A stretch of DNA of 64,000 nucleotides from Eledone cirrhosa (taxonomy: Eukaryota). Position 1 is the stretch's first letter. Each line of letters opens with the position of its first letter. The notes under the pieces are model-generated. The model saw only the letters and a list, made by a program, of their open reading frames with translations, was not told where the DNA came from and did no database searches. Below, piece by piece: positions 2,046-56,213 of the stretch. Location: assembly GCA_964016885.1 (NCBI GenBank), contig OZ024742.1, forward strand, positions 306,218,001 to 306,282,000. The letters run 5' to 3'. The position numbers were made by a program, and so were the translations under genes.

Positions 2046-2220
2046 AGGAACAAGTAAGACGCCGACGGCTGAGCTCAAGCCGTTTCGACGGCTAATGTCG
2101 AAACGGCTTGAGCTCAGCCGTCGGGGTCTTACTTGTTCCTATTACCCACTCTACTACCCTAAGTATTGAGTACTTTGGTGCGTTATGGTCCACCTGGTTC
2201 CTTACCACATTTCCTTCGCT
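2046..2220 (+). mobile_element. F3 mini fold-back element (inverted head plus tail)
   Basis: 2046-2089 is the reverse complement of 2097-2140, followed by the F3 tail; (TA)n on both sides. Confidence 0.85.
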
Positions 2221-2262
2221 ATATATATATATATATATATAAATATATATATATATATATAT

Positions 2263-2430
2263 TAGATATAGAATAGCTTTCACCGTATTTTTCAATACTC
2301 ATCTTTTGCCATGTATCTGAGGGTTCTAAACCCCATTATCAGACTAAAATTTATTTAGTCAAATAATACGGTGAAAGCTATTCTATTTTCTAATTTCAAA
2401 CCTGCTCACTGTTTCAAAACATATTTATTC
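2263..2430 (+). mobile_element. Small fold-back insertion in (TA)n
   Basis: TAGAATAGCTTTCACCGTATT (2269-2289) is inverted at 2365-2385; the right arm contains GAAA-GC-TA, like an HHR 3' half. Confidence 0.5.
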
Positions 2431-2621
2431 ATATATGTATATATATATATATATATATATATATATTTCGTTGACAAATATATCAATATGCCCAGACATG
2501 CAGATATATTGCCGTTGGTATGACAGTGTGGTTTTAGCTCAATGTAGGATAACTAGTATACTACAGAGCCGTTATAGTTATAGGAATAACCATAGAGTGC
2601 TTAGAAATACATTGTTTTATT

Positions 2622-2668
2622 AGCTAACAGTGTTTCATCCATACACCATGGCAGGAATCATCAGAGCC
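2622..2668 (-). ncRNA. Minimal type I hammerhead (F2)
   Basis: GGCT-CTGATGA-TTCC...GGAT-GAAA-CACTG-TT-AGCT on the minus strand. Confidence 0.65.
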
Positions 2669-4126
2669 TATAAACATGAGTATATCAGCAGTTGCATGCT
2701 CCATCGAGCTGCGTCACCAGAACAAGGTTAAAGGACCAATAGGGGGGTCCCGAGGCCAGCGCTATATGGAAAAAGACAGAATACATGATGCACATAATGT
2801 CATAAAATGTCTTAAAAATTTAAAGATTTAAAATTACACCAAAGTTTTATCACTTAAATGGTGCAATAGATGATAAAGAGGTTGGGAGAGGGTAGCAAGG
2901 GATGAGTGAGGATATTACTCAGCATGATCAGAAACAATAGGGAAATAATAAAAAAATAATAATAAAAAGTACAAAAATACAGGGATAAGAAAAGAGATAA
3001 ATATAAAAATACAAAACAATAAAGGAACAAAAAACCCGGAACCCCCCTCCCACTACCCCCAAATTATGAGACAGAGGAAAGCATAGATGCATCAAAGCAC
3101 AAGCAGTGCAAACACAGGGTGCACAGGCAGATTATGAGAGATTGCAAGCATGAGTCTGTGAAAAGAATAGTTGGTTAGCAGTGGTGCAGCCTTACATGTA
3201 TGATAGTCCATATGAGGGATGGTGTACTCCAATTATATCGCCTTGTAACAGGTCGATTCTCCTTATCATATCCGCACCCTACGAACCACATCGATATGTT
3301 CCAGTTCCGAACGTTAAGTGAGATAGCACTATTTTTCCAAAAGCTATACCCAGGGGATTTATCACCATAGGCGGTCAGGGAAATACACCTAAATCTAAAA
3401 TAAAAAATAAAAGAATGTACTAAGAGTTAAAGAGATGTATGGCACATATACAGCCGGTACAGATGTGAGAAAATTGAAAACACGCCAGGCCCGCAGAAAC
3501 TGGCATTCACCAAATCCTCACGTTCGGTCGCTCAATCCAATGTGCCAGGTGAAATTCACTGTATGTCCAAGTTGGCGTTCAACCAATGTATCGCACCGCA
3601 TACAACTGTGCCACTATTCTTTTGACAGACTCATGCTTGCAAACTCTCTTAATCTGCCTGTGCACTCTATGTTTACACTGGTTCTGCTTCGATGCATCTA
3701 TTCTTTGCTCTGTCTTATATTCTGGGGGGGATTTCCGGGCTTTTTGTTCCTTTATTGTTTTGTATTTTTATATTTATCTCTTTTCTTACCCCTGTATTTT
3801 TGTACGTTTTTATTATTTTTTTTAAAATTATTTTCTTATTGTCTCTGATCATGCTGAGTAATACCCTTATACATCCCTTGCTATCCTCTCCCAAACTCTT
3901 CATCATCTATTGCACCATTTAAGTGATACATTTTTGGTGTAATTTTTAGTTTTTAAATTTTTAAGATATTTTATGACATTATGTGCATTATGTGCATAAT
4001 GTACTCTGTCTTTTTCCATATAGCGCTGGCCTCGGGACCCCCCCCCCCCCCCCTGCTGATCCTTTAACCTTGTTCTGGTGACGCAGCTCGATGAAGCATG
4101 AAACTACGGATATACTCATGTTTATA

Positions 4127-4173
4127 GGATCTGATGATTCCTGCCATGGTGTATGGATGAAACAATGTTAGCT
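4127..4173 (+). ncRNA. Minimal type I hammerhead (F2, stem I mismatch)
   Basis: GGAT-CTGATGA-TTCC...GGAT-GAAA-CAATG-TT-AGCT. Confidence 0.55.
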
Positions 4174-4700
4174 AATAAATCAATGTATTTCTAAGCGCTC
4201 TTTGGTTTTTCCTATAACTATATATATATATATATATATATATATATATATATATATATATATATATAATGACGAAATAATATCTGAGTTCATTTTGTTC
4301 CAATTTTAATATACGCAGTGAACAGCCAGAGTCGATAGACCCGAGAATAGAATACACTGTTAAAATTATTCTGGCTCCTTGTGTTCTGAGTTATCAGGCA
4401 TATATTGTTGGTGTAGTTAATCAGTCAACAAGGGGAGCAACGCGTTAATAGAGTGAATCGTTGTGCAAGAAATCGGGCTGGATTATCGCTGCGAAAATAT
4501 CTCCTTAATTCCACCACTCCTCCTTTCCACCCCCACCAACCTCACACACATACACATGTATATTCATTATCAGAACAGGTCTTTATATATATATATATAT
4601 ATATATATATATATGTATTATATATAATTATATATATATATATATATATATATATATATATATATATATATATATATATATATATATATATATATATATA

Positions 4701-53383: not shown

Positions 53384-53463
53384 CAAACGCTGATGAACCG
53401 GGGTTATTTCATTTCTTTCAACAAGTTACTGGCGAAACAGATCACTTTGGATTTGTACGTGTT
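53384..53463 (+). ncRNA. Type I hammerhead (array copy 1)
   Basis: CTGATGA; CCGG/CTGG stem II; GAAA; ACAGATC/GATTTGT stem III; GUA site after 53457; stem I imperfect. Confidence 0.8.
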
Positions 53464-53911
53464 TTATATAGTTATAGAGGTATTTATTTACGCTTTAATT
53501 TATATGTTTAATTATCGTGTGTATACTCTGCCTTTTTTAGCTTATAGATTCCATACACTGGTGATTTTTCCCTGTTTTATTGATAGCGCACTGTATTTCT
53601 CTCTAGTGTGTTACCTTTTCAACATATTGTATTTTAAAGAGCTCAGGATTACCTCTCCTTTGAGCACATGATTTACAGGGAATGACGAGAGTCTATGTAT
53701 CGTGATATTTCGCTCCCTATAACAGTCTTTTCTCTCTCTCTGTTTGGTTGAGCACATATCTCTAAGTGGTTTTGGGCTGCCCTTTCTAGCAGCTCGTTCC
53801 TCAGAGACCAATGGTTCAATGCCCTTAAACACGCTGTGACTTTTCTCTCCCACGTGTAGCTGGACGGTCGCTTTAAAATTCTCTTAGTGTTGTCTGAAAT
53901 GTATAGCCTTG

Positions 53912-53990
53912 CACACGCTGATGAACCGGGTTATTTCATTTCTGTCAACAACTTACTGGCGAAACAGATCACTTTGGATTTGTACGTGTG
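53912..53990 (+). ncRNA. Type I hammerhead (array copy 2)
   Basis: Stem I CACACG/CGTGTG; CTGATGA; 7-bp stem III; GUA site after 53984. Confidence 0.88.
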
Positions 53991-54574
53991 TTATATAGTT
54001 ATATAGCTATTTATTTACGCTTTAATTTATATTTTTAATTATCGTGTGTATACTCTGCCTTTCATAGGTCATAGATTCCATACACTCGTCGTTTGTCCCT
54101 GTTTTATAGATAGCGCAATGTATTTCTCTCTAGTGTGTTACCTTTTCAACATATTGTATTTTAAAGAGCTCAGGTTTTCCCCTCCTTTGAACACATGATT
54201 TACAGGGAATGACGAGAGTCTATGGCTCCGTTAATGTATCGTGATATATATATATATATGCTGTTGATGTATTTTTTATTAATTGAGGGCTTGTTTAAGA
54301 GTTACCACAAGCTGGGAATATATATATATATAATGGTTGTTATGGAAGACTTTTCAATGCAGATGGGTATATCTTCGGGTAACAAAATTAACTACCAGTA
54401 GGAAGAAAGAGGATAGAGAGGAAGAGAAATGTAAAATTTATCATCCACTTCATTCCCTGTTTCCTACTGTCAGTTGAATTTGTTACACGGAGTCTTATCC
54501 ATCTGCATTATAGAGGCTTACAAAAGATATTTTTCATATCCACAATCCTTCAAGCAAAATTAAACTCTCTCATT

Positions 54575-55440
54575 CTTCTTGTGACGCTAAACTCCACTAA
54601 TTGCAGACTGCGCATTAACGTGTGATATCTCTCTCCCCAAAGTTCGGTCACTAGCAGCAAAGTTCAAAGAGCAAAGATCAAGTCCAGTCCTTAAATTGAC
54701 ATTGTCAAGCCATCGTGTTGGCTGCCGGCCTCTGCTTCTCTTAACACCCGACCTTCCCTCCAGGCATAACATACTCATACTACGAGTTGATCTTTTTATA
54801 GGGCCGTATAGTTTGAGTACTCTAGACTTGACAATTGATGTAATCGTCTAAATTTGGTAATGTTGAGCAGCTCACTGATCGCTGAGCCACTTACCAGTCA
54901 TAAGCCTCATAACGTGGTTCTGAAATGTAGAGAGCTTCTGAAGTGACCTTGTCGTCCTAATAACACAGTCAAGACCATATAAAACAACTGGAAGGATGTA
55001 ACTATCAAATATCTTAGTCTCCAAATGACAGGAAACTCGTTTTGATGCTAGTTGAAAACTGCCCAAACCTAAAGCGAGTCGATATTGCGCAGCAACCATT
55101 ACATTGTTGTTTGATGATAGTTTGTGACCGAGATATACAAACTCCGTAACTTGAGCAATTTACTGGTTGTAGATTGTGTTGGAAATTGACATTGTTTTTT
55201 TCAGTTGTCATACATTTTGTTTTGGAGATATTGATGTGTAAGCCAGCCTGCAGCAAATGTTTGGCCAGTACATTCAGAAAGTCGTGCAGATCAGTTCTAG
55301 AGTGACTCAAGATGGCCAGATCGTCTTCATAGCTAAGATTTGACAGGATTTTACCTCCTATTTGATAGCTAGAGGAGCATTCTTCTTCAGTTTGGTAGAT
55401 AAGTGCAGCTATATCTATACAGAAAAGAAGTGCTGATAGT
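54575..55440 (-). pseudogene. RTE-like LINE RT and 3' end, degenerate
   Basis: NLSYEDDLAIL, GLHINISKTKCM, ILPVVLYGLD, RSRGRQPTRWLDNV. Confidence 0.85.
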
Positions 55441-55994
55441 ACTGCTTAACTCACTTCAAGACGTCTATACAGCGTATAGTTCCAAAGTCTGTTCTGATAT
55501 ATGCTGTTGATGTATTTTTTATTAATTGAGAGCTTGTTTAAGAGTTGCCACAAGCTGGGAAGTTTCACGTTGTCAAAAGCTGGTCAAAACACTCTCATAT
55601 ATACATATGAATGATATATACACACACACATATTCATATGTATATGCGTGTGTATGTGTGATCGCCGCCTTAATACACACGCATACACACACACACACAC
55701 ACACACACACACACACACAGACGCACACACACACACACACACAAACACATACAAACACACACACAAACACACACACACACACACACACACACACACACAC
55801 ACACACACACACACATATATATATATATATATATATATATATATATATATACAGAATAAAAAGCAAGTAAGCTAATCAGAAGAGAAAAGTGATTAATTAT
55901 GCAGATTACAAGCCGGTAATGTATTCATGAATCTTTGTTCTCTCATTCATTTTAAATGTTATATATATATATATATATATATATATATATATAT

Positions 55995-56213
55995 TTATTA
56001 ATATAACAGATTAAAGTTTAAGCAAAGAATCGCTGCTTTCACCCTTAACGGGATCTTCAGAAGATCCCGTTAAGGGTGAAAGCAGCGATTCTTTGCTTAA
56101 ACTTTAATCTGTTATATTAATAAATATTTGCTCTTCGGTTCTTATATATTTGATATATATTTTCCTTATCGAGCCCTCTTTGGATTTTAGTCTTCAATTT
56201 TATTATTATTACT
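55995..56213 (+). mobile_element. F1 mini palindromic element
   Basis: Perfect ~63-bp arms centred at 56059 (GATCTTC-A-GAAGATC), followed by the tail. Confidence 0.9.

Follow-up and report, generated by a model that had tools for sequence, protein, structure and literature searches.

Endonuclease-bearing Penelope-like elements (PLEs) leave insertions of a characteristic build, in which a partial tandem with a pseudo-long terminal repeat (pseudo-LTR) that contains a hammerhead stands next to an inverted, 5'-truncated copy, and in which a tail is found at one end and continues into the start of the open reading frame (ORF; PMC8557442, Figure 2; PMC3846280). Insertions of the same build occur in a 64-kb stretch of the genome of Eledone cirrhosa (contig OZ024742.1, positions 306,218,001 to 306,282,000; hereafter the window), but in most families their tails are longer than the published 30-40 bp, and both of their ends are tied to a duplicated hairpin that the cited passages do not mention. 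Within the PLEs, members of the Hydra clade are generally shorter than 3 kb (PMC8557442), whereas the unit of the family that we call F3 measures 3,531 bp, and dozens of families, with near-identical intact copies, share this one genome.

The element closest in behavior is Poseidon_Ac (PAc) of the lizard Anolis, for which in vitro work revealed two internal start sites of the reverse transcriptase (RT) that bound the tail and an AT-rich target that is cut on both strands; the RNA used came from the junction of pseudo-LTR and ORF, the region that matters here as well (PMC11167929). An AC-rich stem loop lies between the two PAc sites, and no primer homology was reported; the sites are not assigned to one strand each, and inverted arms are not accounted for (PMC11167929). 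Here, by contrast, a repeated hairpin is positioned 3' of each site, and both sites have a short TAT-like match after them. In the twin priming of L1 elements, both target strands prime on the element RNA, with the first primer on the poly(A), and a non-overlapping inversion joined by microhomology results. The insertions in the window resemble these products in that both strands seem to prime complementary DNA (cDNA) and the inversion is joined by microhomology; they differ in that most arms overlap (a minority do not), starts are fixed and internal, priming on poly(A) is absent, and an arm may be longer than one unit. Non-LTR retrozymes likewise consist of tandem units with type I hammerheads, and PLE machinery and circular RNA have been proposed for them (PMC7761336); the unit here is autonomous and ORF-bearing, and its need for a multimeric or circular template is inferred, with only multi-unit arms seen.

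One-tailed insertions of Hydra-type elements

The window is rich in dense (TA)n runs and in local inverted repeats at the positions listed by a first-pass annotation made from the DNA letters. Thirteen insertions named there (12 listed, plus one at 24647) were read by eye; each lies between (TA)n runs, with its arms head-to-head and their 3' ends outward. In all 13, one arm ends at a site fixed for its family (site A), while the other runs 70-110 nt beyond it, through a tail, and ends at site B; in most of them, a search for the core pattern placed a hammerhead core ahead of A in each arm. The first-pass annotation had described two head-to-head cDNA-like arms embedded in (TA)n, exactly one tail of ~70-110 nt, and another arm that stops at a fixed TA-like site, with a long arm that carries the tail in the element PLE-A (4784-9327) but a short tailed arm at 13044, 24647 and 40218, and all of this holds. 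Its statement that the arms overlap is correct for the named insertions generally but not at 24647, where the overlap is only ~12 nt.

An intact F3 unit has a long 3' untranslated region (UTR) and a single ORF of 717 amino acids, in which an RT is followed by a C-terminal GIY-YIG-type endonuclease (EN). The motifs RWR and DKT, a CxCX5C linker, and CxxC and CxH near the C-terminus are present, and CCHH is not; PLE-A has RWK, the family F4 and that of the insertion at 2466 have RWR and DKT, and the ORF start of all three is of the F3 type. PF01541, which we take to be the GIY-YIG domain, is present in the top homologue of the F3 ORF, and 2,049 related proteins were found among 8,000 scored. The ORF fragments of the window gave no Pfam match. 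The predicted structural model of the 717-amino-acid protein (pLDDT 93) had telomerase RT as its top PDB match, and the PDB search found no solved PLE structure. Insertion into (TA)n is seen in the window, in young F3 copies and in raw reads, with no target-site duplication discernible within (TA)n. The hammerhead was assigned by its core pattern; Rfam gave no match in the window at the gathering threshold. The Hydra clade is characterized by RWR or RWK, DKT, CxCX5C, CxxC and CxH, the absence of CCHH, a hammerhead, and a (TA)n target (PMC8557442), and we accordingly class the elements of the window, by ORF motifs, hammerhead and target, as Hydra-type PLEs.

That the tail is one-sided is already published; what is given here is a near-strict count of the rule. 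The sample comprised 1.264 Mb of the E. cirrhosa genome (~0.04%), namely the window with its flanks and four other 200-kb blocks, more than half of it from the region of the window. A family-blind search for fold-backs returned 185 candidates, of which the 131 without an inner (TA)n run were kept; arms had to overlap by 30 nt or more to be detected, so that solo arms and non-overlapping inversions, both of which exist, are missed. Twelve of the 131 were set aside because their bounds were TA runs within the element (their outer ends give A+B in eight and no call in four). Among the 119 classifiable fold-backs, 117 were one-tailed, 116 with a non-microsatellite extension of at least 30 nt and one with a 27-nt tail; the other two were a two-tailed insertion and a symmetric one of unclear class. 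With an independent, 50:50 choice of ends, about half of the insertions would be symmetric. By sequence, the one-sided insertions group into 51 clusters (families) with median tail lengths from 25 to ~170 nt. Of the sample insertions, 17 carry the tail on the long arm and 23 on the short arm, and orientation was not called in 28. TA-flanked F3 ends in the sample were B in 33 cases, A in 25 and elsewhere in six, the last mostly alignment breaks. The clear two-tailed case is an F3 insertion (C3_164718; C3 ~306182719-306183015) that has a short duplicated segment in its middle. Two families with other ORFs (C3_649123 and C3_37648), labeled Neptune-like by motifs only, follow the rule as well; their tails are AC- or GT-rich and lack the RCTC/GAGY hairpin described below.

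Palindromes of this kind might be suspected to be artefacts of assembly. However, raw restriction-site-associated DNA (RAD) reads of two other samples cross into (TA)n precisely at site A (2,925 and 2,599 reads) and at site B (7,398 and 8,050 reads), and identical opposite-strand joints are present in both; at the level of the insertion class, this rules the artefact out. Random ends, or frequent insertions with two tails or none, which the first-pass annotation had named as fatal to its proposal, were not seen.

A protein search yielded many near-identical F3 copies, and 40 stretches picked for long ORFs were examined. Thirty-three of 34 complete young fold-backs were A+B; in the 34th, the A end lies behind a small deletion. 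The tail arm was the longer in 17, the shorter in 11 and equal in five, as expected from the earlier prediction of two sharp ends, one of each per insertion, irrespective of arm length. All large young insertions differ in their joints, which rules out inheritance of the joints from palindromic source copies. As taken from BLAST alignment ends, the arms overlap at the joint by at least 2 nt in 17 of 34 (15% expected by chance) and by at least 1 nt in 25, mostly by 1-5 nt of microhomology, and filler is present in eight. In 14 of 30 large young insertions, an arm crosses a unit junction, and the longest spans 4.6 units. In that array (L183-L185; C1:437194001-437217000), one base alternates from unit to unit, suggesting a repeat step of two units.

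Among 21 very young insertions, the two arms differ from each other by 0.67 per kb, versus 2.8 per kb between insertions. Thirty-five lineage variants are common to both arms and one is discordant, whereas across insertions 81% are discordant; 13 private variants are present in both arms. Both arms hence represent one source haplotype, a finding that says nothing on whether one or two molecules were copied.

Many short arms of both kinds stop at F3 unit position ~3390-3400, in loop II of the hammerhead, which is likely a pause site of the RT; no sharp match was found between arm stops and the hammerhead cut site. Of 112 candidate short insertions, 32 could be parsed; in 16 of these, the tail arm ends sooner than the other arm by 25 nt or more, and in one it ends later. 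A trailing RT that collides with a leading one was considered here and dropped as evidence, since equal travel from two starts explains much of the difference and very short A arms are missed.

A bulged hairpin after each end

Tandem F3 units follow one another at 0-1 nt, and the order within the unit is hammerhead, site A, hairpin H1, tail, site B, hairpin H2, and ORF. As known for Penelope and Poseidon (PMC3846280; PMC11167929), the tail runs on into the 5' UTR and ORF of the next unit; B is therefore internal, and neither end of an insertion is an end of the RNA. The proposal of the first-pass annotation that one cDNA is primed at the RNA 3' end is thus not supported. TA-like bases follow both A and B, with a short TAT-like match after each.

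Ends A and B are each positioned ~6-11 nt upstream of one copy of a conserved bulged hairpin. The copy after A (H1) reads RCTC, an upper stem with its loop, a 2-nt bulge and GAGY (in RNA, RCUC...UU-GAGY); the bulge is TT in 17, TA in five, TC in two and CT in one. H1 was called in 25 of the 51 families, compared with a mean of 5.1 (maximum 11) in 200 shuffles, and it starts 6-11 nt from A in 21 of these 25. The pair at the foot of the stem, for which complementarity was not imposed, is A-T in 13, G-C in ten, A-C in one and G-T in none (Fisher p 5.6e-6), and the upper stem has 76 Watson-Crick pairs out of 100, versus 39.9 with shuffled partners (0 of 10,000 shuffles reach 76); the families are related, so that these counts do not represent independent events and the p value is optimistic. 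Covariation was counted by anchoring on the motif, because plain MAFFT of 20 hairpins aligned only the GAG..CT side. The minimum-energy fold of the junction region contains both H1 and H2.

H2 follows B in F3 and in eight other families. For four further families, a hairpin after the tail was predicted beforehand, and a search blind to the motif (tail end plus any two G/C bases) found GCTCC 6-9 nt on in all four; the whole hairpin and the ORF could be read in three. Outside the genome, metagenome contigs provided 77 loci, 42 of them containing the ORF start. Within 200 nt upstream of the ORF, 23 of these 42 have two hairpins, 11 have one and eight have none; the controls gave 0.23 (shuffles) and one (reverse strand) two-hairpin locus. 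The members of a pair are mostly 55-90 nt apart, variants such as TCTC/GAGA still pair, and H2 lies 15-51 nt before the ORF start. At five metagenome loci, a second copy enters (TA)n just before H1 (L245, L250) or just before H2 (L227, L247, L271). Rfam returned only two weak chance matches in ten related loci; hence, the hairpin matches no curated family in those sequences or in the window.

Nothing in the literature that we searched describes the duplicated hairpin or a separate start site for each strand; older subscription reviews on Penelope lay outside this search. The elements and the shape of their insertions were already known; the conserved duplicated hairpin as a cis-element, and the testable model derived from it, are new.

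Models for the two ends

We suggest, as a reading somewhat likelier to hold than to fail, that a single RNA, tandem or circular, is loaded with two RT-EN molecules, at H1 and at H2, and that each of these is primed by one target strand. The endonuclease would cut both strands of (TA)n, one RT-EN would sit on H1 and one on H2 of the single RNA, and each cut 3' end would pair with the few U/A bases directly 5' of the hairpin-bound RT; the two cDNAs would then extend inward by strand displacement, stop independently, and be end-joined. With one H1 and one H2 per unit, one tail per insertion would result regardless of which arm is longer. Since the genomic ends stop before their own hairpins, the order ORF then H2 would require either a transcript two or more units long or a hammerhead-closed circle, and copying of the ORF from B would call for a full unit ahead of H2 in the RNA. 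A template of either form would also yield pseudo-LTR arms longer than one unit, and a purely linear route would lose length every generation. For the lizard PLE protein, cutting and extension of both strands have been seen in vitro, and a dimer is the form proposed by the authors of that work (PMC11167929). A more specific version, which we put forward tentatively and consider doubtful, envisages a hammerhead-cut RNA circle with exactly two RT-loading hairpins, around which two RT-EN subunits roll from opposite target strands; if true, the tail, the inverted arm, the tandems with their pseudo-LTRs and the conservation of the hammerhead would all follow from a single step.

Several observations weigh against loading on two hairpins of one RNA. 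H1 was not called in 26 of the 51 families (some of these are offset or decayed copies), H2 is degraded or variant in three families and absent from six read-through rows (some of which are flank), and families that include those with non-Hydra ORFs keep the rule without an RCTC/GAGY hairpin, so that, for PLEs as a whole, the motif can be only part of the explanation. The fold energy of the junction is no better than that of shuffles (z -0.47), and its centroid keeps H1 and H2 only partly. The two-tailed insertion and some solo arms exist, 19 private variants are confined to one arm, and the sharing of haplotypes fits equally well with two RNAs from one source locus or with later gene conversion. 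The base that alternates between passes in the 4.6-unit array is unexpected from a monomeric circle, and hammerhead cleavage was dispensable in vitro, where no reads ended at the cut site (PMC11167929).

The reading of the first-pass annotation was that the two cDNAs arise on two RNA copies, possibly paired through the palindromic stem III of the hammerhead, with TA microhomology choosing the internal site. Microhomology alone as the guide is not borne out, as TA-like bases follow both sites and yet a conserved hairpin stands after each. Pairing through stem III fares no better: it is symmetric and gives no reason for A+B, and the family F1, whose stem III loop is not palindromic, keeps the rule. 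Two RNA copies as such are compatible with the data if they come from one source locus, while arms from different sources are ruled out by the haplotypes. In this restricted form, two RNAs from one locus, each primed by one target strand (at A and B, respectively) and held together by an asymmetric protein dimer or a hammerhead dimer, we consider the idea unlikely but worth retaining. It would need no strand displacement, one active locus per cell would predict the shared haplotypes, several families have a palindromic stem III, and PLE hammerheads may cleave as dimers (PMC7761336). Each RNA would carry both hairpins, however, and barring extra asymmetry A+A and B+B insertions are expected, whereas the 119 include one B+B and no clear A+A; F1 again speaks against the hammerhead dimer, and no arms of mixed lineage were found despite the coexistence of several very young lineages.

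It is improbable that the ends are set at the level of DNA, through recognition of the repeated motif by the endonuclease in a DNA intermediate, with resolution at A for one end and at B for the opposite one. An origin of the tail by EN-mediated resolution has been suggested (PMC8557442), plasmid cutting by the EN of the fly Penelope depends on the tail (as cited in PMC11167929), and covariation by itself cannot separate RNA from single-stranded DNA. Yet both arms are 5'-truncated at unique microhomology points, as two primed cDNAs would be, and for the lizard element RT starts in vitro match the genomic tail ends (PMC11167929). Self-priming of one cDNA by fold-back or template switch, with the second end joining the target at a TA-like site, has been proposed for rotifer PLEs (PMC3846280) and would explain identical arms and the near-equal arms of 44 of the 117 sample insertions; that excess is confounded by the stop spot in the hammerhead common to many arms, where many of the near-equal cases end. 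Copy-back of a sense cDNA would also place the tail on the longer arm only, but 11 of 33 young insertions and 23 of 40 oriented sample insertions have it on the shorter one, and non-overlapping A+B insertions exist. As a general route, self-priming is therefore largely refuted and highly improbable, though it may hold for some perfect palindromes. We give the smallest chance to the route as first proposed, in which the B arm would be primed on the 3'-terminal (UA)n of read-through RNA made from a tailed copy and the A arm internally, with H2 serving another role such as translation. While (TA)n follows most genomic B ends and H2 is close to the ORF start, the spacing from B to H2 is as short as that from A to H1 in many families and in other organisms, and mere inheritance of an end would not hold such a spacing.

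Features of the window and meaning for Penelope-like elements

The insertions read in the window are compiled in Table 1. Further F1 and F4 arms, with a hairpin or a hammerhead core, are found at 1286-1397 and from 57039 onward.

Table 1. Penelope-like insertions of the window and their parts (positions count from the first letter of the window; a dot marks insertions given without a strand).
Feature	Position	Strand	Arms and motifs
F3 fold-back	2047..2219	.	left arm ends at A; right arm has 80-nt tail; H1 2148-2171 (+)
Fold-back, 2466 family	2466..4218	.	left arm has 107-nt tail; right arm ends at A; H1 2537-2569 (-); hammerhead cores 2621-2664 (-), 4131-4174 (+)
PLE-A	4784..9327	+	short left arm ends at A; long right arm has 96-nt tail; broken Hydra-type RT-EN ORF (+); hammerhead core 9129-9179; H1 9236-9275
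F1 fold-back	9348..10143	.	left arm has 94-nt tail; right arm ends at A; H1 9387-9432 (-)
F4	13044..16072	+	short left arm has 96-nt tail; long right arm ends at A; H1 13106-13130 (-); hammerhead cores 13189-13242 (-), 15970-16023 (+)
F3 near-perfect palindrome	16236..17147	.	tail left; right arm ends at A; H1 16284-16307 (-)
Fold-back	23818..24596	.	tail left; H1 23866-23885 (-)
PLE-A family	24647..26377	.	left arm is tail plus ~12 nt; long right arm ends at A; inversion almost non-overlapping
Short fold-back	31229..31406	.	tail right; H1 31349-31367 (+)
Lone inverted tail, family of 31229..31406	31481..31550	-	between (TA)n runs; H1 31520-31538
Short fold-back	31801..32062	.	tail right; H1-like hairpin 32000-32020 (+)
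F3	40218..43925	+	short left arm has tail; long right arm ends at A and holds 5'-truncated Hydra-type ORF, open stretch 41211-42542; H1 40266-40289 (-)
F1 short fold-back	51363..51584	.	tail right
F1 palindrome	55994..56212	.	tail right; H1 56130-56174 (+)
One-tailed fold-back absent from the first-pass list	56245..56924	.	family without RCTC/GAGY hairpin

A non-LTR retrotransposon with an RVT_1 domain occupies 26476-30395 of the window (ORFs 26744-29848, minus strand) and is apparently flanked by (TAGA)n, not (TA)n. Part of the protein of this long interspersed nuclear element (LINE) is encoded in the interior of a fold-back with a Hydra-type hairpin tail (C3_5897; C3 ~306023898-306025952), through either capture or nesting. 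Another A+B fold-back (C3_287444; C3 ~306305445-306307563) is retrozyme-like, both arms carrying non-coding 312-bp tandem units with a hammerhead core; window positions 10213-10828 seemingly hold a decayed relative of these units.

The origin of the PLE tail, of the inverted arm and of the pseudo-LTR, and the role of the hammerhead, are stated as open in the literature cited here. A covarying motif after both ends names the exact bases to mutate and comes with the prediction of one hairpin per end, and the near-identical intact F3 copies offer a source of protein and RNA for such an assay. For annotation, the hairpin provides a rule for finding the true ends and the 5' start in a large and poorly annotated clade. 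PLE RTs are sisters of telomerase, which makes an RNA element that fixes the start of copying of broader interest, and twin hairpins would likely explain the long-unexplained shape of PLE insertions.

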